Source: Elsinoe ampelina (taxonomy: Eukaryota). From it: a stretch of DNA of 64,000 bases. The notes under the pieces are model-generated. The model did no database searches, was not told where the DNA came from, and saw only the letters and a list, made by a program, of their open reading frames with translations. This document shows, piece after piece, positions 1 through 45,222 of the stretch (positions are counted from its first letter, which is position 1; the number at the start of each line of letters is the position of its first letter). Position numbers and translations under genes: made by a program. Location of the stretch: contig ML992513.1 of assembly GCA_010093995.1 (NCBI GenBank), positions 230,578 to 294,577 of the forward strand. The letters are read 5' to 3'.

Positions 1-500
1 ACTTATGCCGGCCTTAGTATATATATTTAAGCTTCCTAGAGGAACTAGGTTTCTTATAAAGAATATTCTTAGTAGCTATAGAGAAGGCTATAGCTCCCTT
101 ACTAGCCTTTATAGTACTATATAGCTTATAGAGTTTATAAAACTGTCTAAACTTAGTAATTAGTTTAAGTATAGTTAGTAGAGTTAGTAAATCTAGATTA
201 ATAAGATACTTATTAGTAAATGCTAGTTTAGCCTTTAAGATAGAGAGTAAGAAGTCTCTCTATAGCCTTAAGCCTTAAGCTTCTAGTAGATTATAGTTCC
301 TAGCCTTATCTATAACCTCTTTCTATTACTAAAGCTAATAGTCTATATTTTATAAGAAAGAGCTAGATAGCTACTTCCTCTAGAGTGCTTTAATCTTAAG
401 CTAAATAGCTATATTAGATAGAGTAAATCTATTCTTTAATGCTCTAAGAATAGCCTATAGATAAGGATTCTCTTCTAGTTAGATAATAGTAAGAACTTAT

Positions 501-965
501 TATTACGAACTAGTAGGACAAGCTAGAGCGTAGGGATATTAGGACTAATTAAACTACTAAGGTTATTACGTAACCTAGCCTAACGTTTACCTAGTTCTCT
601 ATCTTCTCTAGTAGCTCTACCCCGGAAACTATAGAGCACGTAGGATTACTAGCGGATATATACTTTGTCTTCTCTAGTAGCTCTACTACGGAGTATATAA
701 AGTATATAGAGTACGTAGTAAGAAATACATATATATAGAAATAGTCCTTACCTTATATAAGTACTATAGTTAACCTCGTCTAGATAGCGAATACTAGTAT
801 TACTAAGACTAGCCTTTATAATACTATCTAATTGTACTTTATTATCTATAAGATATACCTTCTCTAACTCTTACCTTAGTACTATACTACTATAGAAGTA
901 GAACTACCTCGTTCTTAGCTTAGCTTAGACTACTAATATAAGCTATATTTAGACAGTTCGTAATA
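501..965 (+). repeat. Gypsy A copy 1, 5' LTR
   Basis: Direct repeat of 7059-7523, differing by C>T/G>A transitions. Confidence 0.95.
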
Positions 966-982
966 TTTTAACTACCCTTACT

Positions 983-3900
983 ATAGTATAGTACGCTATA
1001 AGGTTAATAAGTAACTCTTACTCTAAGTTACTATTAGTATCTTCGATCGCTAGTAAGCTAGGAAAGCTTACTATTAATAACATATCTACTACTAGTTTAA
1101 CCTCGGGTAAACATAGAAGGTCTCTTAGTATAGAGAAAGAATAGAGTAAGCCTAAGTTAGAAGTGGAACTCTTCTATAAGGACTGCGCCTACTTAAGGCA
1201 CTTTCTTGTTTAACTTAAAGCCTTCTTTGCCCTAGAGAGAGATAAGTACGCTAACGACGTAGTAAAGGTCCTCTATACTAGGATATACCTTAAAGGCGCT
1301 ACCTTTAGGTAGTTCGAGCCTTATATAAGTAGCTACCTAGATAGACAACTAGGCCTAGATATAAAGGCTATCTTTAAGAGCTTTAGCATCTTCTAGGCAA
1401 AGATTAAGTAAGTCTTTAATATATCTAATAAGAAATACGTCGCTATAACGAAGATCCGACAACTATAATAACGTAGGTCTATAGCCTAGTACTATTCCTA
1501 GTTCTAATAACTTGTAATGCACCTAGACTAAGATAATAGTACTAAACATTTAGTATTCTACTAAGGACTAAGCGACTCGGTTAAAGACTAAATAATACCT
1601 AAGCTGCCTAATAGCCTCTAAGAACTAGTAGACACTATAATTGCTATTAATAACTAACTTTATAAACGACATATAGAACGTTATAGAGGATATAAGGCAA
1701 ACACTAGATATACGCGTTCCTCTCGAAACTATAGAGACCCTATAGAACTTAATACTATATACGAAGGCTGCCTCTTATAGGTATAAGGCTAAAGTTATAG
1801 AGGAAAGTTCCTTAGTAGAAAAGAGAGAGAGAAGTATAGATAAGACAATTTATATTTTAAGTGTAAAAGACCTAGGTATCGGGCTAGGGACTACTAATAA
1901 GGGGCGCTAGCCGATAGATTATATATAATAGTTGCTAGGCTAGTAGAGAAAAAGGCTAACACTACTATAGAAGACCTAACGACCTTTAGCGTAGGTAAGG
2001 AAATATAGAAGAAGTCTACGACAACTCGAGAGGTAATAGAATTCTCTTCGAATGTTACGCTTAATATCTCTATAACTAATAGTAAATAATAAAGCTAACA
2101 CGTAACGCTATTATAGATAGTATATTATAATAACTCTTGTTATATTTACTTATTAGACAAGTAGAGATCTAGTTAGTTTCTATATAAGCTATCTAAGTAT
2201 AGGTAACTAACGAAATAGCTAGACTAGGAACCTAACCTAGAAGAGCTCCCTATAATTAGTAGTAACATTAACTAACCTTAGAAGGTAGTTAGCGACAATT
2301 ACTAATATATAATTATCGAGATAAAGTATTAGGACGCAAGTGCTATATAACAATATAGTAGCCTTACCTTTAGCCCTTATAGTAAACTATAAGGAAAGGC
2401 ATATTATATATTACTCTAGAAATGTATAAATCTAGATTACGAATAGTACTATACTATTTACTTATACAATATACTCGGAGAAGAGGCTATTAGTCTTAAA
2501 TACACTACGGACTTCTTAGTAATTGAAATAGGTAGTACTATTCTCTATAGCTAAGTACGGGAATATACTTAGTGTAGCTTTACTAACTATAACTATACTA
2601 GAGGTAGTAGCGACGAAGAGGAATATAACGAAGAATATGCCGAATAACAATAATATAATAATATAGATAATAATTTATTTAACAACGACGACGATATACT
2701 ACTACTAGGCGAACGACTTAAAGTATACCTTATAGGGATATAGAGAAACTATATAATAATATACACCTATTACTAGAATAGAATATAACAAGATAAATCT
2801 ACTTAACCTACTTTTGTCTTCGATACTAATACCTAGCTACACCTAGAAGGAATAGTTATACTAATATAAGTATACGACACTACTTAGTATAACTAATAGA
2901 GAATTATTAGACTTTATAGTCATTAAGGAACGTAAGCACTAGAAGTTTACCTCGCTATGTTAAACAATAACAAGACACGACTAGCCTAATAGATATAGTA
3001 CTAATAGTAGATACGCGTAGGAAGGGATTAGCTACTTATCTAAGGCGCTATAATAACAAAAAACTAGCTAGTTGTTACCTAATAAGGTAAGATAATAACA
3101 CTAGCTAAAGCCTTAATATAATAAAGATCTACACGTTAAATTACTTTATACTAGAAGTCTAGATATAAGGAAATAAGGTAAGAGCAATAATAGATTCGGG
3201 AGCTAACTATAGCTATATCTCTATAATAGTTACTAATTAGCTTAAACCTTATTAACATTAGAAGGAGTTACCTTACCTACTTACTATAGTAAATAGAACC
3301 TCTATAGAGAAGGACGGAAAAGTTACTTAGAAACTATAAAACGTTATAATTAGAATTAGGACACATATAGAAAAATAATTAATTAATATAGTTAATATAT
3401 AGTATAATATAGTACTTAGTATAGACTAGCTTTAATAATATAATCTAGACGTAGACTAGATTAAAGGAACACTCGAATTCTCTAAGTATAATTATAGGAC
3501 ATAGGGAGTATAATTAGCTCTATAGATACTAACTATAAGAATAGTATAGGTACGACTAATAGTTAGAGCTATCGCTAGCGTAAGTAATTAAGTACTTCCG
3601 CCGGAATATAAAGACTTTAAGGACTTATTTAAAGAAAGGAAAGGCATTATAGCCTTACTCTAATATAAACTATAGAATTATAAAATACCTTTCGAAGAGA
3701 GTAAATCCCCGATATACTATTAAGGTCTTATACTACTGTCGAAATAAGAGGAGAATATCCTTAAGAACTATATCGATAAGTACTTACTTAAAGGATTTAT
3801 ATAACTATTAAAATTACCTATTACGTATAGAGTGCTTTTTACACTAAAAAAGGATAAAACATTATAAATATACATTAATTACTAGAAACTTAATACACTT

Positions 3901-6439
3901 ACTAGGAAGAATTACTATCCCCTACTAAGGATTAATAAACTTTAAGACCGACTACTTAGAGCTAAATAGTTCACTGCGATTAATATTAGGGATGCCTATT
4001 ATTAAGTATAAATAAAGAAGAGTAAGGAGTAGAAAATAGCTTTTAGAACATAATAGAGTCTATATAAGTACCTCGTTATACTCTTTAGGTTAACTAATGC
4101 TCCTATAACCTTCTAAGAGTTAATTAATAATACTCTATAAGAATACTTTAATAACTTTATCTTAGTATATTTAGATAATATTGTTATTTTCTTAAAGATG
4201 TATAATAAACATATAGGACATATTTATAAAGTACTATAGAAACTAAAAGAGAAAGACCTACTAGTAAAACTCTCTAAGTATAAGTTCTATAAGCACAAGA
4301 TACAATTTCTAGGCTATATTATATCTACTAATAGCATTAGACCTAATCTAAGGAAGATCGAGTTAGTAAATAACTAGCCGGAACCTACGATAGTTAAGGA
4401 GGTTTAAGCGCTACTAGAGTTCTTTAACTACTACTATAAGTTTGTTAAAGGATTCTTTAAGGTAGCTATACTAATATCTAACCTTACGAAAAAGAAAACT
4501 AGCTTTATCTTCGACGAGAAATGTAGGTAGGCCTTTAAGGAGCTAAAGCTTAGGCTTATAATAGTATCTATCCTAGCACTCTTTAACCTAGACCGATAAG
4601 TACTACTAGAAACGGATGCCTTAGACTTTACAATAGAAGCGTATCTAGTATAGAAGAACGTAGAAGAATAACACTACCTAATTATATACTACTTACGAAA
4701 AATAACTAGACCTAAACTTAACTACGATATATATAATAAGGAATTACTCGCGATTATAGAAGTGTTCTATAAATAGAGAGTATACCTAGAAGAGATAACC
4801 TTACCTATATAAGTCTATACCGACTATAAGAACCTTCTATATTAAACAATAACTAAGGTTCTTAATAGATAATAGATTCGATAGTTAGAAACACTTATAA
4901 GCTATAACTTCTAGATCTACTATGTTAAGGAATTAGAGAATAGCGAAGTAGACGCTCTTAGCCGCTAGTCGGATTACTTAAAAAATATAACAATAATAGA
5001 GGCCTCTATACTAAAGTAGTAGGATAGCGCTTTAGTCTATAAGCACCCGAAGGTAGAGTAGTTATATAGCCTCACCTAGGAGCTTACGTAAGAATAGAAA
5101 AAAAGAAGTTATTTAAATATACTATAATAACCTAACTATAGGATATAGTAGGATCGATAAGACTATTAAACTTATTACATAAAACTACCTCTAGAAAGAA
5201 CTCCGAAACGATATTAAGACATATATTACTATATATAATACATGCTATAAGTCTAAACACTCTCGATATAAACTATATAGCCTACTATAACTCTTACTAC
5301 TACTAGATAAACTATAGTAATTAGTTATAATAGACTTTATAGGACCTCTACTACTATTAGAAGAACCTCTTACAGGTGTAAAGTATAATAGTATTCTAGT
5401 CCTAGTAGATAGATTTACGAAGTATTACTATTTTGTACTATATAAGATAATAGTAACTACTAAGGATATAGCCTTTATCTTCCTCCGAATAATTGTTTTA
5501 TAATACGGAGTACTACGAGACTTAATAACTAATAGGGATAAGCTATTTACGTCACAATTCTAGTAATTATTTATAGACCTACTAGGAGTTAAATATAAGC
5601 TATTAACCTCCTTTTACCTATAAATAGATAGACAAACTAAATAGGCAAATTAAGTACTAGAGTAGTACCTACGCTACTACCTAAACTATAAGTAAGACTT
5701 ATAGGTAATACTATTACTACTCGTAGAGCTTGCTATTAATAATAGAAAGTTAGTAAATAGAGTTTTACTATTCTATATAAACTATAGAATACACCTAAAT
5801 CTATACTACGATATACTTAGAATTAAGCTAATATCTAAGGATATAAATAGACTAGTAGCTAACATTAAGAAGTTATATAACTAGCTATACTAAGATATAG
5901 CATTTATATTACAAAGAATAGTAGGGTTTACTAACTAGAAGAGAATTATAGGACTAATTCTATAGAAGGGAGAGAAGGTTTACCTCCTTAGTAAAAACAT
6001 TAAAACGAAACAACTAAGTAAGAAACTTAACTACACTAAACTAGGACCCTTTAAGATCCTAGAAAAGAAAAACAAAAACGTATACAAACTAGAACTACCT
6101 AGACATATAAGGATCTATCTAGTCTTTTATATATTACTATTAGAGAAAGCACTATAGGACATAGTACCTAGACTTATTAAACTAGATAAAGAAACACAGG
6201 AGCTATAATATAAAATTAAAAGAGTTTTACGTTATAAATCTATAAGGGGAAAACGTTACTATCTTATTTACTAGAAAGGATATTAGTATAGTAAGGTAAT
6301 ATAGGAACTAGAGGAACACTTTACCTCGTAAGCAATTCTAGATTACTAAACTAAAAACCTATCCTAAGTAAACTAACTAGGTAGGCTAGACGCTACTAAT
6401 ACTAAACAAAAATAAGAACGCCTAAGAAAGACTACTTAG
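983..6439 (+). pseudogene. gag-pol of Gypsy A copy 1 (gag with CCHC, protease, RT, RNase H, integrase, chromodomain), inactivated by RIP
   Basis: De-RIPed motifs: CFKCKRPGHRARDC ~1850-1895; IDSGA ~3190; YLDDI ~4168-4182; ETDASD ~4610; DGQTERAN ~5630; chromodomain YYLVHWKGY...WEPEEH ~6255-6320. Many TAA/TAG stops. Confidence 0.9.
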
Positions 6440-6984
6440 CCGATAGAAGTACCTTAATCGTCGCTAAATAAGGAACCCTAATCGGAGTTAGGTATAAATA
6501 ATTACTAATCCTATAGTAGGATAGAATCCACCGACAATAGTATTTCCTCTTACTCTAGGACTTAAATACGAGTTTCCTCTAGGTAAATTACTTTCTCTAC
6601 CTTATTCTCTAGTTTCTATATCGCTTTACATAGGCAAAGCTTATCGCCTATAGCTCTTTAATAAGCCTCTTTCGCCTTTTTATAAGCTTCTTTAGCTTCC
6701 TTTCTAGTAGCCTTAGCTATAACTAATTCCTTTTATAAACGAATATACTTAGACTAGAGACGCTACTATTCTAATTTTGTTACTTAAATATTATAATCTA
6801 AGTAGTTACTTACGACATACTAGCTATAGATACCCGACCGAATATAGACCTTATAGTCTAGCCCCTTCGATTTATAACAAGAATAAGCCTATAGCATGTT
6901 AGTTCTAAATAGTTTAATAAACTTCGAGAGATTCTTTTATATAGATATACTAGATTTACTATGCCTTTAATAACTAGAAGGCAT
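6436..6984 (-). pseudogene. Antisense ORF in Gypsy A 3' region: Zn(II)2Cys6-like cluster plus coiled coil (RIP-degraded)
   Basis: Single 549-nt frame. Six TAT codons (RIP of TGT) are spaced C-x2-C-x6-C-x8-C-x2-C-x7-C at 6885-6793, followed by a K/E/A-rich helix. Same frame and length in copy 2. Confidence 0.65.
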
Positions 6985-7058
6985 ATTTAGTATATAGCGC
7001 GTAAAGATAGAGAAGAATACTTACTTATTAGAACAACTTAATTAAAGGAGGAGAGTAA

Positions 7059-7523
7059 TATTACGAACTAGTAGGACAAGCTAGAGCGTAGAGATATTAG
7101 GACTAATTAAACTACTAAGGTTATTACGTGACCTAGTCTAATATTTACCTAGTTCTCTATCTTCTCTAGTAGCTCTACCCCGGAAACTATAGAGCGCGTA
7201 GAATTACTAGCGGACGTGTACTCTATCTTCTCTAGTAGCTCTACTACGGAGCATATAGAGTATATAGAGTATATAGTAAGGAATATATATATATAGGAAT
7301 AGTCCTTACCTTATATAAGTACTATAGTTAACCTTGTCTAGATAGCGAACACTAGTATTACTAAGGCTAGCCTTTATAATACTATCTAATTGTACTTTAT
7401 TATCTATAAGACATATCTTCTCTAACTCTTACCTTAGTGCTATACTACTATAGAAGTAGAACTACCTCGTTCTTAGCTTAGCTTAGACTACTAACGTAGG
7501 CTGTGTTTAGACAGTTCGTGACA
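7059..7523 (+). repeat. Gypsy A copy 1, 3' LTR
   Basis: Direct repeat of 501-965; ends TGACA and is preceded by the PPT. Confidence 0.95.
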
Positions 7524-7989
7524 CTTATAGTACAATTAATAACTAAATAAGGCTAGCTAAATTAGCTAAGGCCTTATACTATTTATTATATTATACTTAT
7601 TCCTCCTTATATATCTAGAAGAGTACTAAGAAGTTAGTATTTACTACCTCTAGCCTTTAAGGCTTAGGGAGCCCTTCTAGTTTAATAGTCTTCTAGGGAT
7701 TAATAAGGTTCTATATCTTAGTGTTTAATACTCTTATCTTAATAATATATAGCTAGCTAGCCTATTTAGCTAATATAGTAAGAATAATAAGTGTTCTAGC
7801 TATTAAGGTATTAGTATCTATAGTTGTTTATCTCCTTATTAATATCTAAATCCTGTAGTTATAGTTAAGGTAGTTCTTAATAGATTCTAATACTTAAAAA
7901 GTAAGATAGTAGAGAATTAACTAATAAATAGAGTAGGAAAGTAACTAAGTAATATACTTATATAGGGGTAGTTATACTAGGCTTATAAC

Positions 7990-8248
7990 TATTAACTTGT
8001 GTAGGGGAGGAAACAGGATTAATTACTGCCTAATCTACTAAACTAAGGTGGATTATAACTATATAAATACTTAACCTAGTGTACTAAAAGATAGCTAAAT
8101 TAAAAGAACTCCTTAATAGTAGCAGATTAAGACAATAATTATCTAATTTGATTATGGATTAGTAAAATGGTAAGATAGTGTTCAGTTCAACCTTGGGATG
8201 AACTGACTCAGGGTCTTCTTGGCGCTCCAGCTTATGCCTCGGTTGACA
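7990..8248 (-). repeat. Copia 5' LTR (259 bp)
   Basis: Inverted match to 59260-59518 with the same length and TG...CA termini. Confidence 0.85.
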
Positions 8249-23783: not shown

Positions 23784-24392
23784 ATGGAAAGCCAAAGGAT
23801 GCCGTCTTCATCTCTCCTCGCCTTGCTATATCCGTTGCCACATATTCTTCTAACGATATACCTGGTCCCTCTTCTGCCGTACCCTTCGCTGACGCTGGCG
23901 CTGTCGGCATATGCGGCGCTCTCGCTGTTCGCCTCGATGCTGGGACTCTTCGGGCTACGACTCCGCTCGCCAACGTTCCTGTTCATCTTCTCCCACCATC
24001 TGATGCTGGATGTTTTCCTTTCACTCGTCCCACAACTCACGCTCCTGGCTGTCTTCCACGACTTTGCCGCCGGTGGCGACGTTTGCCCTACAGTCTACGA
24101 CGGCATGAAGAGCTACGGCAAGTTCAGAGTTCCGAGCTCGGAAGTGCCGTTTGCTGGTCTGGGCAAGTTGATCGGTCTTGGCGAGACGAACTGGTGCCAG
24201 CTTGGATTGCAGGCCACCCAAGCTGTCGCGGCGACGCTGATCGTTTTTGGAGGGGTCGCGCAGTGGAGAGCGGCTTTGGGTGTGCGGCGACTGGCGATCT
24301 GGTACGAGATGACCGAGAAAGTGGCTGCCGAGGAAGAGGAGGCGGAATGTGGCGAAAAGGAGGGTCTGCTGAGCAATGTGGAAGAGAAGTGA
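23784..24392 (+). CDS. Hypothetical multi-pass membrane protein
   Basis: About four hydrophobic segments with a Cys-containing loop before the last one. Start codon uncertain. Confidence 0.6.
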   Translation: MESQRMPSSSLLALLYPLPHILLTIYLVPLLPYPSLTLALSAYAALSLFASMLGLFGLRLRSPTFLFIFSHHLMLDVFLSLVPQLTLLAVFHDFAAGGDVCPTVYDGMKSYGKFRVPSSEVPFAGLGKLIGLGETNWCQLGLQATQAVAATLIVFGGVAQWRAALGVRRLAIWYEMTEKVAAEEEEAECGEKEGLLSNVEEK

Positions 24393-24464
24393 AAGCCGCT
24401 GTCCAGGACTGATCATCAACCGTCCTTCTCGACCGCAGCTCACAGCTCATTGCGAGGAAAATAC

Positions 24465-25637
24465 TCAATCCTCCCCGGCCTTCCTCTTCCGACTCCCTTC
24501 CACCACCTCCCCCTTCTGAGCATTCCAACACTTCACCACCCTCACCATCCCCCAATCCACCATCCCCTCAGCCCTCAACTTCCTCCCATCCCACCCAAAC
24601 TTCTCCGCCTCCTCCGCCCTGGCAACCAACCACTTCCCCCTCGCCACACCAAAACTCCCCTCATGTCTCGGCCCATACCCTTTCCTCGCCAACTTCCACC
24701 AACACCTCACCTCCCTCACCCCGCACCCCTCACAATCACACCTACAACCCCCACAATCCCCCACCGAACACACGCACACCACGATGCACCCGCAATGCAT
24801 ACAGCACTTCTCCACACTACTCGCCCAGCCCCCCTCCACCGTCCTCGCCATGACGACCTCCAGCCCCCGCCCCATCTCCCGCCCCGCAGCCGACACCAAC
24901 GCATCAAACACGGCGTCTGGCGCCAACGCGGCCGTCGGCGGGAACACGAAGCGGTTGATGTGCCACGCGCAGATCCGCGGCTCATTGACGGGCACCGAGT
25001 CGTCGGAGAGATGACTCAAGCCCTGGCCGGTCGCGACATCGATGGCGCCTTCCTCTCCCCCGCGTTCGTCCTCCTCGACGATCCTCTGGCTCTGGCCCGT
25101 CGCGAAGTTCTGGAACGGTAGGCTGGGGGAAAGTATCCCTGCTCTCCGGAAGAGGGAGAGTGGGTAGAGCGACTTGCACAGGGCGCAGCGGGCGCGGTTG
25201 TCCTGCGCGTCGCGGAGGGAGGTGAGGTGGCGGGTGCAGGCTGTTAGGTTGCAGGGGGAGGTTTCGGCTGGTTTGCGCGGGGGTGGGAGGAGGTGGTGCA
25301 GGGGGCGGCAGGTGAGGCGGAGGGAGAGGAGGGAGGGGGCGGGGAGGTGGTCGGTGAGGTGGAGGAGGAGTTCGGGGGGGAGGTTGAGGAGGGGCGAGAC
25401 GGGGACGGGGAGGGAGGGGAAGGGGAAGGAGGTGGTGCTGGAGGGGAGGGAGGAGGAGAATGTGAGTGGGGGACAGGGGGACGGGAGGGGGGAGGAGCCG
25501 GCGTTGCTGATGGGGATGGGGAGGCCGGTCGGGGATGGCTCCTTGTTGTCGTTTGGCGTCGTCTCCTGCTGGGTTGATGAAGATAGTGTAGCCGCTTCGT
25601 CCACTTCCGTGTCTGGGGTTGGGAGGACTTCGACCAT
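24465..25637 (-). CDS. F-box domain protein with Cys-rich C-terminus
   Basis: F-box LLNLPPELLLHLTDHLPAPSLLSLRLTCRPL; CALCK, ICAWH and CMHCG motifs. Start uncertain (25637 or 25700). Confidence 0.8.
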   Translation of the reverse strand: MVEVLPTPDTEVDEAATLSSSTQQETTPNDNKEPSPTGLPIPISNAGSSPLPSPCPPLTFSSSLPSSTTSFPFPSLPVPVSPLLNLPPELLLHLTDHLPAPSLLSLRLTCRPLHHLLPPPRKPAETSPCNLTACTRHLTSLRDAQDNRARCALCKSLYPLSLFRRAGILSPSLPFQNFATGQSQRIVEEDERGGEEGAIDVATGQGLSHLSDDSVPVNEPRICAWHINRFVFPPTAALAPDAVFDALVSAAGREMGRGLEVVMARTVEGGWASSVEKCCMHCGCIVVCVCSVGDCGGCRCDCEGCGVREVRCWWKLARKGYGPRHEGSFGVARGKWLVARAEEAEKFGWDGRKLRAEGMVDWGMVRVVKCWNAQKGEVVEGSRKRKAGED

Positions 25638-26898
25638 TTTGTTGGTTGTGATTGACGGGGCCAGCGTTGCCGCAGCGAACGAGAGGAGTTGGTACAGCAT
25701 TGTTGATTGTACGATAGTAGGAAACGAATGTAAGAACTGACAAACTCGAGAGAAATGTCGTGGTACTTGCGGCAAATTGAAGACAAAACCGGTGCTGGGT
25801 TGGTGGTCATATTTGAAACAATGTCTGGGGACCTTGTGGCATGTTACCGTGGCACGGGGCAAAAGTGCAGCGGTGCGATACGGCATGCGTAAATAACTAC
25901 ACGCACTGCCAGTCATCTGATTGCGCAGATAAGTGCAGAAATAGTGGTATACCTCTGTTTGGCAACGCTGCGCTGCGCATTCGGAAGCATGAGAACCCTC
26001 CATTCCGAGTTCCTGTCGGGCTGAAGGATTGCGCCGCTCGACGTGAAGATGTACAGCGTCCTTGAGCGGCGCGTCCCTTACCTGACCAGCGCTGCAAGAG
26101 TCTTATGCGGGCCGTCATCATTCTGAACGCGAAACGGGAACAGGAGGAGTAACGTGCGCCATGGGGGTTTGCAGCTCCCCCCCCTTTGCAGCGCTGCCAA
26201 ATCGAGGGTAGGATCGCCGCCCGTTAGCGTGTGTAAAAAGGCATCTTTTTGGCGGGTCTGAACACATCTTGGCGGGCTAAAAGCCCTAGTGCAGTTTCTT
26301 CTTAAGGCTTAAAAACGTGAAGCTGAAAAAAGGTAGTATAGACTAGCTCTTAAGGCTTAAAAATTAAAGCTAAAAAAAGGTATAATAAGCTATTACTACT
26401 AGCTATTATATAGAAGCGTTTATAACTCTTAACTATCCGGCACTTCTAGAAGCTAAGTGCTCTAAGTGCTTAGAGGCTAAGTGCTCTAAGTGCTCTAAGT
26501 ACTTTAGCTAACTATCTTCTATAGTAGTATTTAAGCTCTTTATATTTACTATTAAGGTAAGAATTGTAAAATTGATAGAGGAGGAGTTAGTAAGGCTAGA
26601 GGGAGTAGCGACAGTGTAAAAGGTAGTACTAGAAATAAGAAGAAGAATATTAGAGACTAGTAAGACTAAAGAGGTATAATAAAAAGTTATAGTAGTATTA
26701 GTAATAGAGAAGAAGAAGATAAAGATTAGTATAAAGAGTTTACTAAAGAGATTAAAGTATACCGCTGTCTCTTTTTAGCTAGCCTTTAACTACTTAGCTA
26801 AGTACTAGATTATAAGTTAGACTATAAGTTAAATTATAAACTAGATAAGGCCTTTAAAGGCTTAATTCTCTTCTTGTAATTATTACACTAGAATATAG

Positions 26899-29800
26899 TA
26901 TTATAAACTAGTAGGATAGCTAGAGCGTAGGGACGTTAGGACTAATTAAACTACTAAGGTTATTACGTGACCTAGTTTAATATTTACTTAATTCTCTATC
27001 TTCTCTAGTAACTCTACTCTAGAGACTATAGAGTATATAGGTTACTAGTAAATATGTACTCTATATTACCTCTAACTCTCGCTATAGAGTATATAGAGTA
27101 TATAGAGTATATAGTAAAGAATACATATATATAGGAATAGTCTTTACCTTATATAAGTACTATAGTTAACCTTATCTAGATAGTAAACACTAGTATTACT
27201 AAGGCTAGCCTTTATAATACTATCTAATTATACTTTATTATCTATAAGATATACCTTCTCTAACTCTTACTTTAGTACTATACTACTATAGAAGTAGAAC
27301 TACCTCGTTCTTAGCTTAGCTTAGACTACTAGTATAGGCTATATTAGATAGTTTATAATACTTTAACTACTCTTACTATAGTATAGCACGCTATAAGGTT
27401 AATAAGTAACTCTTGCTCTAAGTTACTATTAGTATCTTTAATCGCTAGTAAGCTAGGAAAGCTTACTATTAATAATATATCTACTACTAGTTTAACCTTA
27501 AGTAAATATAGAAGGTCTCTTAGTATAGAGAAAAGATAGAGTAGGCCTAAGTTAGAAGTAGAACTCTTCTATAGGGACTACGCCTACTTAAGGCACTTTC
27601 TTGTTTAACTTAAGGCCTTCTTTACCCTAGAGGGGAACAAGTACACTAATAATATAGTAAAAGTCCTCTATACTAGAATATACCTTAAAGGTGCTACCTT
27701 TAGGTAGTTCGAGCCTTATATAAGTAGCTACCTAGATAGATAACTAGGCCTAGATATAAAGGCTATCTTTAAGAGCTTTAGTATCTTCTAGGCAAAGATT
27801 AAGTAAGTCTTTAATATATCTAATAAGAAGTATATTACTATAACAAAGATTTAATAACTATAATAATATAGGTCTATAGCCTAGTACTATTCCTAGTTCT
27901 AGTAACTCGTAATACACCTAGACTAGGACGATAGTACTAAACACTCTATATTCTATTAAGGGCTAAGCGACTTAGTTAAAGATTAAATAATACTCGAGCC
28001 GCTAGATAGCCTTTAAGAACTAGTAAATACTATAATTACTATTAATAACTAACTCTATAAACAACATATAGAACGCTATAGAGAATATAAAGTAAACACT
28101 AGATACACGTGTTTCTCTTAGAGTTATAGAGACTCTATAGAACTTAATACTATATGTAAAGGTTACCTCTTATAGGTATAAGACTATAGCTATAGAGGAA
28201 AGTTCCTTAGCGAAAAAGAGAGAGAGAAGTATAGATAAGACAATCTATATTTTAAATATAAAAGACCTAGACATTAGGCTAGAGACTACTAATAAGAGGC
28301 GCTAGCTAATAGATTATATATAATAGTTACTAGGCTAGTAGAGAAAAAGGCTAATACTACTATAGAAGACCTAACGACCTTTAGTATAGATAAGAAAATA
28401 TAGAAGAAGTCTATAATAACTTAAGAGACAATAGAACTCTCTCTAGATATTACGCTTAATATCTCTATAACTAATAATAAATAATAAAGCTATTATATAA
28501 CGCTATTATAGATAGTATATTATAACAACTCTTATTATATTTACTTATTAGATAAGTAGGGATCTAGTTAGTTCCTATATAAGCTATCTAAGTATAGGTA
28601 ACTAATAAAATAGCTAGACTAGGGACCTAACCTAGAAGAGCTCTCTATAATTAGTAGTAATATTAACTAACCTTAGAAGGTAGTTAGTAATAATTACTAA
28701 TATACGATTATTAAAACGAAGTATTAGAACGCAAGTACTATATAACAATATAGTAGCCTTACCTTTAGCCTTTATAGTAAACTATAAGGAAAGGTATATT
28801 ATATATCGCTCTAGAAATATATAAATCTAAATTATAAATAGTACTATACTATCTACTTATATAATATACTTAGAGAAGACACTATTAGTCTTAAATACAC
28901 TATAGACTTCTTAGTAATCGAAATAGATAGTACTATCCCCTATAGCTAAGTAAAGAAATATACTTAGTATAGCTTTACTAATTATAACTATACTAGGGGT
29001 AGTAGCGATAAAGAGAAATATAATAAAGAATATACTAAATAACTATAATATAATAATATAGATAAGAATTTATTTAACAACAATAATAATAACAATGTAC
29101 TACTACTAGATAAGTAACTTAAGGTGTACCTTATAGAAATATAGAGAAATTATATAATAATATACACCTACTACTAGAGTAGGACATAATAAGACAAATC
29201 TACTTAACTTATATTTGTCTTTAATACTAATATATAGCTCTATTTAGAAGGAATAGTTATACTAATATAGGTGTATAATACTACTTAGTATAATTAGTAG
29301 AGAATTATTAGACTTTATAGTTATTAAGGAACTTAAGCGCTAGAAGTCTAGCTTACTATATTAAATAGTAATAAGACACGACTAGCCTAATAAGTATAGT
29401 ACTAATAGTAGATATATACGGGAAGGAATTAGCTACTTATCTAAGGAGCTATAATAACAAAAAACTAGCTAGTTATTACCTAATAAGGTAAGACAATAAC
29501 ACTAGCTAAAGCCTTAATATAATAAAGATCTATATATCGAACTACTTTATACTAGAAGTCGAAATATAAGAGAATAAAGTAAGAGTAATAATAGATTTAG
29601 GAGCTAACTATAGCTACGTTTCTATAATAGTTACTAACTAGCTTAAACCTTATTAATATTAGAAGGAGTTACCTTACCTACTTACTATAGCGAATAGAAC
29701 CTCTATAGGGAAGAATAGGAAAGTTACTTAGGAACTATAAAATATTATAATCAAAATCAAAACACACATAGAAAAACAATTAATCAATATAGTAAACATA

Positions 29801-32800
29801 TAGTATAATATAGTACTTAGTATAGACTAGCTTTAATAACATAATCTAGACATAGACTAGATTAAAGAAATACTTAAATTCCCTAAGTATAATTATAAAA
29901 CGTAAAAAGTATAATTAGCTCTATAGATACTAACTATAAGAATAGTATAGGTACAACTAATAGTTAGAGCTATTACTAGCGTAAGTAATTAAGTACTTTC
30001 GCTAGAATATAAAAACTTTAAGGATTTATTTAAAGAAAGAAAAGGCATTATAGCCTTACTCTAATATAAACTATAGAATTATAAAATACTCTTTAAAGAG
30101 AGTAAATTCCTAATATACTATTAAGGTCTTATACTACTATCGAAATAAGAGAAGAATATCCTTAAGAACTATATCGATAAGTACCTACTTAAAGGATTTA
30201 TACAACTATTAAAATTACCTATTATATATAGAGTGCTTTTTGTACCTAAAAAGAATAGAATATTATAAATATACATTAATTACTAAAAACTTAATATACT
30301 TACTAAGAAGAATTACTATTCTCTACTAAGGATTAACAAACTTTAAGACTAACTACTTAGAGCTAAATAGTTTACTATAATTAATATTAGGGACGCCTAT
30401 TATTAAGTATAAATAAAGGAGAGCGAAGAGTAAAAAACAGCTTTTAGGACGTAATAGAGTCTATATAAGTACCTCGTTATACTCTTTAGGTTAACTAATA
30501 CTTCTATAACCTTCTAAGAGTTAATTAATAATACTCTATAAGAATACTTTAATACCTTTATCTTAGTATATTTAGATAATATTATTATCTTCTTAAAGAT
30601 ATATAACAAATATATAAAATATATTTATAAGGTACTATAGAAACTAAAAGAAAAAGACTTACTAGTAAAGCTCTCTAAGTATAAGTTTTATAAATATAAG
30701 ATATAATTTCTAAGCTATATTATATCTACTAATAGTATTAGACCTAATCTAAAGAAGATCGAGTTAGTAAATAACTAGCTAAAACTTACTATAGTTAAGA
30801 AGGTTTAAGCACTACTAGGATTCTTTAACTACTATTACAAGTTTATCGAAGGATTCTCTAAGGTAGCTACGCTAATATCTAACCTTACGAAGAAAGAAAC
30901 TAGCTTTGTCTTTAACGAAAAGTATAAGTAGGCCTTTAAGGAGCTAAAGCTTAGACTTATAATAGTACCTGTCCTAGTACTCTTTAACCTAGACTAGTAA
31001 GCGCTACTAGAAATAGATACCTTAGACTTTATAATAGAAGCGTATCTAGCGTAGAAGAATATAGAAGAACGACGCTACCTAATTATATACTACTTACGAA
31101 AAATAACTAGATCTAAACTTAACTATAATATATATAATAAGGAGTTACTTATAATTATAGAAGTATTCTATAAGTAGAGAGTATACCTAGAAGAAATAAC
31201 CTTACCTATATAAGTCTATACTAACTATAAGAATCTATTATATTAGATAATAACTAAGGTTCTTAATAGATAATAGATTCGATAGTTAGAAACACTTATA
31301 AGCTATAACTTTTAGATCTACTATATTAAGGAATTAGAGAATAGTAGAGTAGACGCTCTTAGCCGATAACTAGATTACTTAAAGAATATAACAATAATAG
31401 AGGCCTCTATACTAAAGTAGTAAAATAGCGCTCTAGTCTATAAGTACCCGAAGGTAGAGTAGTTATATAGCCTTACTTAGAAGCTTATATAAGAATAGAA
31501 GAAAGAAGTTATTTAAATATACTATAACGACCTAATAGTAGAGTATAGTAGAATTAATAAGACTATTAAACTTATTATATAAAACTACCTATAGAAAGAA
31601 CTCTAAAACAATATTAAGATATATATTACTATATACGATATATGCTACAAGTCTAAGCACTTATAACATAAGCTATATAGGCTATTATAACTCTTACTAC
31701 TACTAGATAAACTATAGTAATTAGTTATAATAGACTTTATAGAACCTCTACTACTATTAGAAGAACCTCTTACAGGTATAAAGTATAATAGTATTCTAGT
31801 TCTAGTAGATAGATTTACAAAATATTACTACTTTATACTATATAAAACAATAGTAACTACCGAGGATATAGCCTTTACCTTTCTCTAAATAATTGTTTTA
31901 TAACATAAAGTACTATAAGACCTAATAACTAATAGAGATAAGCTATTTATATTATAATTCTAGTAATTATTTATAGACCTACTAGGAGTTAAATATAAGC
32001 TATTAATCTTCTTTTATCTATAAATAGATAAATAAACTAAATAGGCAAATTAAGTACTAGAGTAGTACCTACGCTACTACCTAAACTATAAGTAAGACTT
32101 ATAGGTAACACTATTACTACTTATAGAGCTTGCTATTAATAATAGAAAGTTAGCTAATAAAATTTTACTATTTTATATAAACTATAGAATATACCTAGAT
32201 CTATACTATAACATACTTAGAATTAAGCTAATATCTAAGGATACTAATATANNNNNNNNNNNNNNNNNNNNNNNNNNNNNNNNNNNNNNNNNNNNNNNNN
32301 NNNNNNNNNNNNNNNNNNNNNNNNNNNNNNNNNNNNNNNNNNNNNNNNNNNNNNNNNNNNNNNNNNNNNNNNNNNNNNNNNNNNNNNNNNNNNNNNTAGT
32401 CTTTTATATATTACTACTAGAGAAAGCACTATAGAATACTATACCTAGACCTATTAAACTAGATAAAGAAACATAGGAGCTATAGTATAAAATCGAAAGA
32501 GTTTTATATTATAAATCTATAAGAGAAAAGCGTTACTATCTTATCTACTAGAAAGGATATTAGTATAGTAAGGCAATATAGGAACTAGAGAAACACTTTA
32601 CCTCGTAAGTAATTCTAAATTACTAGACTAAAAACCTATCCTAAGTAAACTAACTAGGTAGGCCCGACGCTACTAATACTAAATAAAAATAAGAATGCCT
32701 AAGGAAGACTACTTAGCTAATAGAAGCACCTTAATCGTTACTAAATAAGGAACTCTAATCGGAGTTAGGTATAAATAATTACTAGTTCTATAGTAGAATA

Positions 32801-33797
32801 AAATTTACTAACGATAGTATTTCCTTCTACTTTAAGATTTAAATATAAGTCTTCTCTAGAGAGATTACTTTCTCTACCTTATTCTTTAACTTTTATATCT
32901 CTTTATATAGGTAAAGCTTATTACCTATAGCTCTTTAATAAGTCTCTTTTACCTTTTTATAAGCTTCTTTAGCTTTCTTTCTAGCGGCCTTAGCTATAAC
33001 TAATTCCTTTTATAAACGAATATACTTAGACTAAAGATACTACTATTTTAATTTTATTACTTAAATATTATAACTCGAGTAGTTACTCGTAATATACTAG
33101 CTATAAATATCCGACCGAATATAGACTTTATAGTCTAGCTCTTTTAACTTATAACAAGAGTAAGCTTATAGCATAATAGTTCTAAATAACTTAATAAACT
33201 CTAAAAGGTTCTTTCGTATAGATATACTAGATTTACTATGTCTTTAATAACTAGAAGGCATATTTAGTATATAGTATAGAAGGATAAGAAAGAATACTTA
33301 CTTATTAAAACAACTCGATTAAAAGAGAAAAGTAATATTATAAACTAGTAGGATAGCTAAAGCGTAGAGACGTTAGAACTAATTAAACTACTAAGGTTAT
33401 TACGTAACCTAGCTTAATATTTACTTAATTCTCTATCTTCTCTAGTAACTCTACCTTAGAGACTATAGAGTATATAGGTTACTAGTAGACGTATACTCTA
33501 TATTGCCCCTAACTCTCGCTATAGAGTATATAGAGTATATAGAGTATATAGTAAAGAATATATATATATAGAAATAGTTCTTACCTTATATAAGTACTAT
33601 AGTTAACCTCATCTAGATAGTAAACACTAGTATTACTAAGGCTAGCCTTTATAATACTATCTAATTGTACTTTATTATCTATAAGATATACCTTCTCTAA
33701 CTCTTACCTTAGTACTATACTACTATAGAAGTAGAACTATCTTATTCTTAGCTTAGCTTAGACTACTAGCGTAGGCTATATTAGATAGTTTATAATA
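26899..33797 (+). mobile_element. Full-length RIP-degraded Gypsy chromovirus, family A, copy 2 (contains an N gap at ~32252-32396)
   Basis: 462-bp LTRs at 26899-27360 and 33336-33797. TSD TATAG at 26894-26898 and 33798-33802. Collinear with 501-7523; gag-pol remnant 27378-32716. Confidence 0.95.
32713..33261 (-). pseudogene. Antisense Zn2Cys6-like ORF of Gypsy A copy 2
   Basis: 549 nt, with the same six TAT/TAC positions as copy 1. Confidence 0.65.
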
Positions 33798-33802
33798 TAT
33801 AG

Positions 33803-42829: not shown

Positions 42830-43134
42830 ATCAAGCACGAGCATCGACGTCTCGACGGCATGTTGCATGGAGCCATGTACAAGCAAGAGTCTGAAGGACG
42901 GACGGGAGGCGTGACGGATATGTGAAGACCGGCATGATACACTTTTGATGACATTTTTTTTGGGTACGGAATAGCTAGACTGTACATAGTGCGAACAAGT
43001 ACACCTGGTTCTCTCCAGCTGAATCGCTCCCACCTCAGACAGAAAATGTGTGTAAAGTTTGGTCATAAATCCAATCGTGTCTACAGGTATATGTACATCC
43101 TTGCCGGGCCAATGTCTTCTACAACATCTCTACT

Positions 43135-45222
43135 CTACTTGAACGGGTCCTCCTCGGGCCACAACATCTCCGTCTCCTCCACCACGCTAGGGCCATTCCA
43201 AATCTTTCCCTTCCCCCTCCCACCACCATCCTTCCACCTCTTCCCCTTCTTCTTCATCATCACCTGTCCCGGGCCTTCCTCGTTCCCCAAGCCATGCAAC
43301 CTCACCATCTCCGCCCTCTTCTCCGCCCTCTCCACCCCTTCCAACGCCCTACCCAGCACCTCCTCCACCTCCTCTCCCACATCCCACTCCCTCACCCTCC
43401 TCGCCGCCTCCCTCACCTCCTCCCCCGTGCCATGCAGTTCCCAAGCCCTCAACCCCGCCCTCACAGTCTCCCCATCCACCCTCGACCCATTTCTTTCACC
43501 TGTCCCGTGATCCCCTCGTCTCACCCAATCCACATGCCCAACCCACAACCCCCACACCCTCCCGACCCCCGCCCTGCCCCACCCCCCAAACCTCACCCCC
43601 CTATGCCTCTCAAACCCCGAAAACAACAGCCCCCACGTCCCCATCTCCACCCTCAACCCCGTCCCCATGGCCTCCTCCACCAACTCCACCGCCGTCTCCA
43701 ACTCCCCCGCCACCCACCCCGCGTGCTCGACCAGCATACGATACGTATGCGCATCCGGCGTCACGGGCGTGGCGTCCTGCACCTCCCTGCGCAGATCATG
43801 GTGGTGCCGCAGCTGCCACGCGGTGTACTTGAGCACATGGCCGGAGCGGCGTTGGGCGAGCCAGTCGTCGGCGGGGATGGCGGCGGGGCGACGGGAGGTG
43901 TGCAGGGCTTTCATGCGGGCGAAAGTGGCGAGGGCCGAGGCGAGGTCCCCCGCGTCGAGCAGGGCGCGGATCACGGCGTTGAGCGCGATGGTGTCGATGA
44001 GTTCGCCGGCGTGGAGCATGGATTTGTAGGCTTGTCGGATGCCCGGGACGGAGCGTTGGCGGCCCGAGTAGACGATGCGGAGGAGGTGGGTGTACCGGTC
44101 GGGTTGGAGGTGGCGGGTCGTGATGGTGTTGAGGAGGGTGCGGACGAGGGGGAGGGATTTGGCTTTGAGGGCTAGGACGCCGAGGGTGTTGAAGGTGACG
44201 ATGTCGCCGTGGGTGGAGGGGGTGGATTCGAATTGGTGAAAGAGGGAGAGGGCCCGTTCGAGGCGGGTGGTGGGGTCGAGGGTGGGGGAGCGGCCGATCC
44301 AGTGGAGGGAGGAGTTGAAGTCGCGGTGGGTGAGGGGGCGGGAGGAGGAGGTCATGTCGGACATGACGGTGAAGTATTGTTCGACTTGTTTGGTGGGTTT
44401 GGACTTGGTGCGGCGGAGGAGACTGAGGAAATCGGTGAGGAGGTGCTCGCTGATGTAGCAGACTCGGGGTGAGGGGATGAGCATGTATGCAGACCAGACT
44501 TGGTCTTTATCGGGCGTGGGCTGGTTGAGGAGCTCTCCGAAGCGGAAGACGGACGGTGCAGTCTTCTCGTCGAGTTGCTCGATCTTACGGGGTCTACCAG
44601 CATGTTGTGCCATGTGTCGTGTGACCAGATAGGTCTGTTTGGTTGTTTGTAGTCGGGTCTTCTCTTCCGCGTTGGCTTCTACCTTGGCCCGGATCTGAGC
44701 AATGTGCTTGTCATCCCTGATTCTCGTGCGTCCCTGTTGACGTGGATCTCTTTGTACTTCTTCCTTCCGCGGATCTGGTGGCTTCTCTTCGGGAGGTAGC
44801 ACACTCTCCAGCTCTTCTTCTGTGAACGGCACTTCGATTGCCTGGGCCGCAGCGGCAGAGTATCTCCGAGCTTTTGATAATGTAGACTGCGCTCGAGTGC
44901 TAGTCGCTGATAGCCCTGGCAGATTTCTGGTCCACCGAGGTCTATGGTATTCGTGTCTGCAGCGCTGGCTGGATTCCGAACCAGATATCGTGGTGGTGGC
45001 TGATCGCCCGACACAGGCTGTATGGCGAGAAGCGTGCTTGTATTCCTTCTCTTCGTGTTGTAGGCGCCCAGTACTACCCCTCCTCTCTTTCGAGCTTGCA
45101 TGACCCCTGTTGGTACTGTTTCCATGCTGAGAACGGTCGAATATAAGATGCTTCAGAAACCTTAGGCACTGAGGAGAGGGAATGGGAGCGCCTCTAGGAG
45201 CAGAGATGGGAGACAAGGACAT
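43135..45222 (-). CDS. Pentatricopeptide-repeat protein, probably mitochondrial
   Basis: 695 aa. PPR-like units (DIVTFNTL, PDRYTH, DTIALNAVIRALLDAGD, PDAHTYRMLV); basic N-terminus with RRYSAAA. Confidence 0.85.
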   Translation of the reverse strand: MSLSPISAPRGAPIPSPQCLRFLKHLIFDRSQHGNSTNRGHASSKERRGSTGRLQHEEKEYKHASRHTACVGRSATTTISGSESSQRCRHEYHRPRWTRNLPGLSATSTRAQSTLSKARRYSAAAAQAIEVPFTEEELESVLPPEEKPPDPRKEEVQRDPRQQGRTRIRDDKHIAQIRAKVEANAEEKTRLQTTKQTYLVTRHMAQHAGRPRKIEQLDEKTAPSVFRFGELLNQPTPDKDQVWSAYMLIPSPRVCYISEHLLTDFLSLLRRTKSKPTKQVEQYFTVMSDMTSSSRPLTHRDFNSSLHWIGRSPTLDPTTRLERALSLFHQFESTPSTHGDIVTFNTLGVLALKAKSLPLVRTLLNTITTRHLQPDRYTHLLRIVYSGRQRSVPGIRQAYKSMLHAGELIDTIALNAVIRALLDAGDLASALATFARMKALHTSRRPAAIPADDWLAQRRSGHVLKYTAWQLRHHHDLRREVQDATPVTPDAHTYRMLVEHAGWVAGELETAVELVEEAMGTGLRVEMGTWGLLFSGFERHRGVRFGGWGRAGVGRVWGLWVGHVDWVRRGDHGTGERNGSRVDGETVRAGLRAWELHGTGEEVREAARRVREWDVGEEVEEVLGRALEGVERAEKRAEMVRLHGLGNEEGPGQVMMKKKGKRWKDGGGRGKGKIWNGPSVVEETEMLWPEEDPFK

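Follow-up and report, generated by a model that had tools for sequence, protein, structure and literature searches.

Two copies of a chromodomain Gypsy retrotransposon in the Elsinoe ampelina DNA analysed here (contig ML992513.1; the whole stretch of 64,000 nucleotides is called the window) carry, on the strand opposite to pol, the fossils of a real protein-coding gene. It is a conserved accessory gene of an ascomycete chromodomain Gypsy lineage and is located between pol and the polypurine tract with the adjoining 3' long terminal repeat (LTR). Judged from their sequences, the intact versions encode an intron-less protein of about 175–210 amino acids. The reading favoured here is that of a conserved chromovirus accessory gene which was killed by repeat-induced point mutation (RIP) and whose product would have been a minimal dimeric DNA-binding regulator, expressed from an antisense promoter in the 3' LTR. 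This reading is given a probability of about 0.65. The remains of the gene in the window are the following, P0091 being the database protein that matched best.

6436..6984, minus strand: antisense accessory gene inactivated by RIP, with 182 codons and a stop (phmmer match to P0091 at E 2.3e-13, eight others; family alignment)
6437..6439, plus strand: probable pol stop TAG, overlapping the antisense stop by 4 nt (TTAG 6436-6439); in frame with the integrase, and the overlap recurs in intact loci
6793..6885, minus strand: remains of a Cys6(+His) module, with TAT at each of the six Cys columns of the family and, at 6846-6844, at its His column (family alignment)
6550..6783, minus strand: remains of a long, coiled-coil-like helix, aligning to helix 75-156 of the P0091 model
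6439..6549, minus strand: remains of an acidic Trp/Phe tail, with TAG 6480-6478 at the family Trp column (family alignment)
32713..33261, minus strand: dead counterpart of this antisense gene in copy 2, with Tyr at all six Cys columns

An initial annotation, made from the sequence alone, had pointed out this frame, its stop overlap with pol, the six Tyr codons and the type of its internal stops, and all these letters are present. The frame runs from the ATG at 6984-6982 to the terminal TAA at 6438-6436 and is interrupted by 17 internal stops, all of them TAA or TAG. The Tyr codons are found at 6885-6883, 6876-6874, 6855-6853, 6828-6826, 6819-6817, and 6795-6793, with spacings of x2, x6, x8, x2, and x7, and each of the seven codons of the module, including the one at the His column, is a single G>A or C>T step away from the family residue. 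In copy 1 the ATG is 59 nt from the polypurine tract and 71 nt from the 3' LTR. The TAG at 6437-6439 is the probable pol stop; five RIP-type stops precede it within the 37 codons after the chromodomain, and an earlier in-frame stop could be the original one. In copy 2 the six Cys columns read TAT except for TAC at the first. In place of the stop at 6939-6937 of copy 1, copy 2 still has CGA (Arg), the residue of 33 of 34 family members, and the family Trp column (Trp in 38 of 39) is TAG in both copies. No Pfam family, Zn_clus included, matched the three minus strand frames of the window or copy 2. By itself the spacing of the Tyr codons could be due to chance: 22 kb of RIPed window DNA, where Tyr makes up 8–10% of the codons, contain over all six frames 14 matches to the relaxed pattern [YC]x2[YC]x6[YC]x5-12[YC]x2[YC]x6-8[YC], 2 of which are real and 12 due to chance. 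The observation becomes significant because the frame, when read with X at its internal stops, has intact homologs.

Both copies are clearly marked by RIP, which had been proposed as the cause of the Tyr codons and stops. TpA/ApT and (CpA+TpG)/(ApC+GpT) serve as RIP indices; the former is 1.93 in copy 1 and 1.86 in copy 2 as compared to 0.56 in the GC blocks of the window, the latter 0.20 and 0.14 as compared to 1.31. The two copies differ by 723 transitions and 44 transversions. A DNA sequencing run (X1) yielded 5303 contig pieces of the element family at a likeness of at least 80%, with transitions at 221 of the 229 variant places. Among the 40 variant places listed for this run none is at a Cys-codon position. 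Of three further runs presumed to contain RNA, two gave no matching contig and one a single contig confined to the LTR end, which carries no information on expression. Position 6797 shows T>C in nearly all other copies of this run, which restores a Gly where P0091 has Gly.

The antisense frame with X at the internal stops was compared exhaustively with 1.84 billion representative proteins by phmmer, which gave nine matches at E<=1e-3; the three best had E values of 2.3e-13, 1.1e-9, and 1.9e-8, each over about 140 residues. A word-indexed protein search with the same X-read frame gave nine candidates, none of which scored. Seven of the nine phmmer matches are intact proteins of 175–211 amino acids, and the other two carry Tyr where the others have Cys, as in the window. 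A profile of the seven intact proteins collected 41 family proteins of 113–219 amino acids, in none of which a Pfam domain scored above threshold. Only two of the 41 carried organism names, Bathelium mastoideum and Elasticomyces elasticus, both being annotated as hypothetical. The nearest clusters in the ESM Atlas, useful as a lead only, are unnamed Ascomycota proteins of 101–106 amino acids with scores of 0.87–0.91 and no Pfam family. The hosts of the family look Dothideomycete- or lichen-associated. P0095 and P0099 are family database proteins with Tyr at several Cys columns, and therefore represent RIP-damaged copies which were called as proteins elsewhere.

In the alignment of 42 members the module reads C-x2-C-x6-C-x2-H-x5-C-x2-C-x6/7-C, with the six Cys kept in 40, 40, 41, 40, 41, and 41 of the 42 sequences and the His in 41. 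The ancestral Cys which the initial annotation had proposed for the six Tyr sites is thus what natural homologs contain, and these also have His at the KVY site and Trp, Gln, or Arg at the stops. Its back-translation was essentially correct, because the Trp, Arg and Cys columns of the family match it, and the K/E/A-rich helix and the acidic Trp-containing tail which it had read from the damaged frame are present in the intact homologs. Columns kept in at least 85% of the members were taken as conserved; at these 39 columns the window is identical in 20, changed by C>T or G>A only in 17, and changed otherwise in 2. The Cys, His, Trp, and Pro columns are invariant in the family, and a motif L-S-P-x-T-W ... 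D-x-F-W is conserved in the tail. Met-Pro is the start of the window frame and of the homologs alike, and the open reading frames (ORFs) of the latter are continuous. This bears on a segment upstream of the frame, 7024-6974, which had been described as intron-like. The letters GTAAGT...CTAA...TTCTAG are there, but an intron is unsupported: the segment contains the ATG 6984-6982, and it was rejected as an intron because splicing would remove the conserved Met-Pro start.

Scanning of metagenome contigs with the family profile yielded 61 loci, 35 of which contain an uninterrupted ORF of 150–230 amino acids with the full Cys motif, so that intact homologs at the same position, for which a search had been suggested, do exist. 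Forty-three of the loci extend at least 600 nt beyond the gene, and in 40 of these the C-terminus of a Gypsy pol is encoded on the opposite strand within 800 nt, which agrees with the position between pol and the polypurine tract initially assigned to the gene. The exceptions are L037, with an internal pol deletion, and L006/L007, which represent one LTR-bounded 2.4-kb derivative without pol. In this derivative (L007:9551-11964, also in L006) the LTRs are 95% identical and an intact 175 amino acid gene (P0098) lies beside a gag fragment of 155 amino acids; it looks like a non-autonomous element which retained the accessory gene. The gene and pol are convergent and their ends mostly overlap by 4 to about 140 nt, with the stops overlapping by the same 4 nt as in the window in L002, L013, L024, and L026. 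LTRs flank the antisense gene in both window copies, L007, L041, and L060, and the distance from the ATG to the LTR is 71 nt in the window, 85 nt in L007, 87 nt in L041, and 120 nt in L060. Like an aORF-3R (the brtn type of antisense ORF), the gene is located inside the element, between pol and the polypurine tract or 3' LTR and on the opposite strand, and its coding sequence is conserved across copies and families. Nine contigs of 6.1–7.4 kb (L005, L013, L015, L019, L020, L026, L030, L033, and L039) repeat their own start at the end over 123–174 nt at 99–100% identity. They were assembled as circles with one LTR and the internal region, which may be an assembly effect of two LTRs or reflect real one-LTR circles.

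Conservation at the codon level, which had been named as a test, was examined with 32 distinct intact ORFs. Synonymous sites were saturated in most pairs and the 13 pairs with a synonymous divergence (dS) of 0.05–1.5 were used. The median ratio of nonsynonymous to synonymous divergence (dN/dS) was 0.098 in the frame of the gene. The same nucleotides yielded 1.15–1.54 in four of the other frames and 0.39 in one antisense frame. Purifying selection acts on the antisense gene in the gene's own frame; because the part overlapping pol does not include the Cys module, pol does not explain this constraint. Another finding was that distances of the antisense ORF correlated with those of pol (r=0.39, 22 loci), a value reached by 3 of 2000 permutations; this fits joint descent.

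A structural model of P0091 was calculated with AlphaFold (AF2) from 42 sequences and yielded a mean predicted local distance difference test score (pLDDT) of 80.8. It contains a helix at residues 17-31, two short helices (40-45 and 59-63) starting at the two CxxC pairs, a long helix from 75 to 156 with block-mean pLDDT values of 92–98 over residues 81-150, and a tail of low confidence. In the family the N-terminal helix is basic with a conserved Ser/Thr-Arg-Arg, the hydrophobic periodicity of the long helix peaks at 3.5 residues, and the last 45 residues contain on average 7.9 Asp plus Glu, 0.95 Lys plus Arg, and 4.3 Trp plus Phe.

The Zn2Cys6 label which had been attached to the Tyr pattern fared unevenly. 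The intact homologs have C-x2-C-x6-C-x8-C-x2-C-x6/7-C, which is within the six-Cys spacing of PF00172 (C-x2-C-x6-C-x5-12-C-x2-C-x6-8-C), but the Pfam cut-off for Zn_clus (21 bits) was not reached: E<=1 was obtained for 7 of the 42 members with 0.097 as the best value, and 9.7–12.1 bits for three of nine members scanned. A profile of the domain only, compared with PDB sequences, ranked Lac9 first with all six Cys aligned (E 0.13), followed by the zinc-ribbon ribosomal protein L37Ae (E 0.14), and a profile of the full-length alignment yielded nothing beyond coiled-coil noise and Leu3 (E 0.44). No Foldseek match reached E<=0.001. Among the matches listed, none of them significant, Zn2Cys6 DNA-binding domains made up 21 of 25 for the full model and 16 of 19 for a model of the 75-residue domain. 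These neighbours were Hap1, Pho7, Leu3, Gal4, Put3, Ppr1, AlcR, Lac9, and Cep3, the last of which also carries a cluster of the Zn2Cys6 type. Pho7 superposes at 2.0–2.8 A over 33–34 columns, and VIA-align placed Ppr1 first among 48,161 chains, the match not being significant. In the viral structure library BFVD nothing meaningful was found, the best E being 0.49 with rhabdovirus phosphoproteins matching the long helix, and a search for natural Zn2Cys6 domains in the window and the loci found none. The Cys module probably has the binuclear-cluster (Zn2Cys6) fold, with about two chances in three. Membership in the Zn2Cys6 class, resting on the Cys spacing together with weak fold and sequence matches, is not established.

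In the favoured mechanism transcription would start in the 3' LTR and read inwards. The antisense promoter is deduced from geometry only, because the ATG lies 71–120 nt from the LTR. The Cys module would bind two zinc ions as a binuclear cluster of the Gal4 type, the long helix would dimerise the protein, the dimer would bind DNA and the acidic aromatic tail would recruit the host machinery. The product may act on the LTR of the element itself or on host promoters, comparable to HBZ of the human T-cell leukaemia virus type 1 (HTLV-1). The most economical role would be to govern the transcription of the element itself, or host genes adjacent to its insertions. A stronger version is only tentatively put forward: an ascomycete chromovirus lineage would encode its own dimeric Zn2Cys6 transactivator of about 190 amino acids with an acidic tail, use an antisense promoter in the 3' LTR and thereby switch the element on or rewire host genes, the family being unrelated to brtn, the antisense gene of Boty-like elements.

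Several points weigh against the favoured reading. The dN/dS values rest on 13 usable sequence pairs only. The middle of the long helix consists mostly of charged residues and Ala and is poor in hydrophobics; therefore a single stable helix is possible instead of a coiled coil. The Zn_clus score is below the Pfam threshold, the invariant His is foreign to the Gal4 cluster and the extra N-terminal helix is not a Gal4 feature. Paired CGG/CCG half-sites within 900 nt upstream of the gene were sought in the nine circularly assembled elements, with at most 4 found as compared to 1.6 expected and no enrichment, which counts weakly against a canonical Gal4-type site in the LTR.

In the main rival explanation the gene is a real element gene, but with its Cys6-His module forming another zinc fold such as a zinc ribbon or treble clef, or with its protein not being a DNA-binding regulator. 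The protein could then be a zinc-stabilised adaptor or chaperone for Gag, integrase or the genomic RNA, or a scaffold docking a host protein via its Pro/Trp tail. The sub-threshold Zn_clus score, the His alien to Gal4 clusters and the missing enrichment of CGG pairs speak for it, as does the L37Ae zinc ribbon, level with Lac9 in the profile comparison, and the tail motif is conserved in the way of a docking motif. That the pol-deleted L007 derivative keeps the gene and a part of gag would fit an adaptor, and fits the regulator equally. Another zinc fold is opposed by the prediction of short helices rather than beta knuckles at both CxxC pairs, by the conservation of all six Cys where a C4 ribbon needs four, and by top structural neighbours which, with few exceptions, are Zn2Cys6 domains with the coiled coils behind them. 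This explanation is considered rather unlikely, and the regulator remains the preferred reading.

It is improbable that the antisense transcription itself matters, by feeding RNA silencing or by controlling pol through pairing with the genomic RNA, and that the frame is secondary. In most loci the convergent genes share from 4 to about 140 nt, so that antisense and sense RNAs would be complementary; passages of PMC8365987 report Botrytis LTR retrotransposons as sources of small RNAs, which counts in the same direction. A secondary frame is, however, hard to reconcile with purifying selection which is specific to it, with ORFs of 150–230 amino acids remaining intact in 35 of 61 loci and with invariant Cys, His, Trp, and Pro columns. 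Very improbable, and contradicted by the data, is a host gene neighbouring the insertions, or a recent one-off capture. L006/L007 have no pol within 6.6–10 kb, but the 2.4-kb derivative in L007 is bounded by LTRs and contains a gag fragment. In both window copies the gene is placed between pol and the 3' LTR, in 40 of 43 loci it is found beside pol, and it co-diverges with pol. That the Tyr pattern arose by chance in AT-rich RIPed DNA which never contained a gene, for which the 12 further occurrences of the relaxed pattern in 22 kb and the fact that any stop in RIPed DNA is explicable by RIP could be quoted, has a negligible chance and is refuted by the phmmer match of E 2.3e-13 over 140 residues to intact proteins, the agreement at conserved columns and the same position in dozens of elements.

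The interpretation given in the initial annotation is partly supported: its core was correct, the intron was a mistake, and the name of the fold and the function are unproven.

The host element and its second copy have the following features, in addition to the antisense gene.

498..961, plus strand: 5' LTR of copy 1, about 464 bp, ends accurate to a few nt (self-BLAST 498-961 = 7056-7519, 93%; boundary letters inspected)
3913..4905, plus strand: reverse transcriptase and RNase H of pol, RIP-riddled, in the frame of 964 (Pfam matches)
5090..6151, plus strand: integrase region from the H2C2 zinc domain to the Tf2-type SH3, in the frame of 962 (Pfam)
6209..6328, plus strand: chromodomain-like C-terminus of pol, aligning with the pol chromodomain stretch of loci L001-L039
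7044..7055, plus strand: polypurine tract AAAGGAGGAGAG, adjoining the 3' LTR (sequence inspected)
7056..7519, plus strand: 3' LTR of copy 1, where the antisense promoter is presumed to lie (self-BLAST)
26896..33798, plus strand: element copy 2, 88% identical to copy 1 and RIPed more heavily (self-BLAST)

Copy 1 is an LTR retrotransposon ranging from 498 to 7519 with a pair of LTRs which are 93% identical by self-BLAST; the LTRs of copy 2 are located at 26896-27353 and 33333-33798. The damaged pol of copy 1 still yielded Pfam matches to RVT_1 (E 9e-14), RT_RNaseH_2 (E 2e-17), RT_RNaseH (E 7e-16), Integrase_H2C2 (E 9e-5), and SH3_Tf2-1 (E 2e-11). Chromo was not called by Pfam on the RIPed pol of the window; its domain PF00385 is present in the pol relatives of the element. 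The element has LTRs and reverse transcriptase, RNase H, and integrase in Gypsy order with, by alignment, a C-terminal chromodomain-like stretch, which is the organisation of a chromovirus. The nearest polyproteins are from Elsinoe fawcettii and E. australis with 58–63% identity, and with another Dothideomycete polyprotein included the range is 56–63% despite the damage. Copy 1 has a frameshift between reverse transcriptase/RNase H and integrase because the frames differ (964 and 962); this frameshift, 3913-4905 versus 5090-6439, comes on top of the RIP stops. The two copies could not be aligned at 5849-6120 of copy 1 and 32249-32397 of copy 2, where copy 2 is about 120 nt shorter, around the integrase SH3 and just upstream of the chromodomain-like stretch. 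The 3' LTR of copy 1 contains an internal repeat of 43 nt (7152-7194 and 7218-7260, 86% identity).

The window consists of blocks of about 52% GC alternating with AT-rich blocks of 23–31% GC. Copy 1 sits within another RIPed repeat, its flanks 309-500 and 7523-8200 being contiguous in 59308-60171 on the opposite strand, with 95–96% identity; about 6 bp are common to both sides of the junction, which is what a target-site duplication would leave. A kilobase of only 13% GC (60001-61000) lies inside a third RIPed block. GC peaks of 0.59–0.63 are found at 24001-26000 and 43001-45000, where the GC skew changes abruptly from about -0.27 and -0.40 to +0.38 and +0.33, respectively, within 2 kb.

LTR retrotransposons are usually viewed as gag-pol machines which rely on the transcription factors of the host. 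The extra gene described here is conserved, selected and intron-less, and it resembles a minimal DNA-binding regulator. If this is true, an entire lineage of fungal elements supplies a control protein of its own in the manner of complex retroviruses, and the gene would offer a handle on how elements escape or time their expression and on a possible rewiring of host genes in fungal genomes shaped by repeats. It would also offer a handle on the role of the widespread and unexplained antisense ORFs of LTR retrotransposons. The gene defines a protein family with more than 40 distinct sequences and without a Pfam model, and it illustrates that real genes can be recovered by reading RIPed DNA backwards.

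The statement of the initial annotation that Gypsy elements have only gag-pol overlooks antisense extra ORFs already reported, in passages of PMC7264820 and PMC8365987, for brtn in Boty and for several plant elements. The antisense gene brtn belongs to the Boty-like (BcGypsy1) elements of Botrytis cinerea and Sclerotinia (Zhao et al. 2011, as cited in passages of PMC7264820, PMC8365987, and PMC4227169), and it is alike in being an extra antisense gene between pol and the 3' LTR of a fungal chromodomain Gypsy element. The citing passages describe no product or domain of brtn, and the comparison with the window gene is one of position and orientation; among the 41 family proteins, only two of which carried organism names, no Botrytis or Sclerotinia name was found. 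Antisense additional ORFs are further described, in passages of PMC7264820, for the plant Gypsy elements Grande, RIRE2, Retand, and PvRetro13, and in passages of PMC4408406 as the eORFs of the Tat lineage. They share position and orientation with the gene described here, are conserved within families and in some cases have a coiled coil; they differ in belonging to the non-chromovirus Tat/Retand lineages and in having PMD and transposase-28 domains (PMC4408406), a Cys6 module not being reported in these passages. The functions of brtn and of the plant antisense ORFs are given as unknown in the passages of PMC7264820, PMC8365987, PMC4227169, and PMC4408406 which mention them, and a figure legend of Novikova 2010 (PMC2864245) indicates an 'add. 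ORF' of unknown function. A search for literature joining Zn2Cys6, LTR retrotransposons and antisense found none among the papers covered, the nearest being the brtn citations and the plant cases. The arrangement is known already. What appears not to have been described is the protein family, together with its wide occurrence and its build resembling that of a transcription factor.

The Gal4-type factors Gal4, Hap1, Ppr1, Put3, Leu3, Pho7, and Lac9 are like the family in the six-Cys spacing, the helices at the CxxC pairs and the linker followed by a long helix, and the acidic aromatic C-terminus of the family resembles an activation domain. The family differs from them in its length of only about 190 amino acids, the absence of a middle homology region, the extra conserved N-terminal helix, and the invariant His, and it is carried by a retrotransposon whereas the Gal4-type factors are host regulators. 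Two viral proteins may be compared as to mode of action. HBZ of HTLV-1 is a basic leucine zipper (bZIP) factor whose antisense gene is transcribed from the 3' LTR; Tas is the transactivator of foamy viruses. There is no relation of sequence or fold between them and the family, and bZIP is absent from the Pfam matches of the 42 members. The likeness is by analogy only and consists in an accessory gene at the 3' end whose product would be a small regulator that dimerises, binds nucleic acids and has an activation-type region; HBZ also shares the antisense orientation. Should the transactivator reading hold, the family would be the first case of a transcription factor encoded within a fungal retrotransposon, and a functional counterpart of HBZ.

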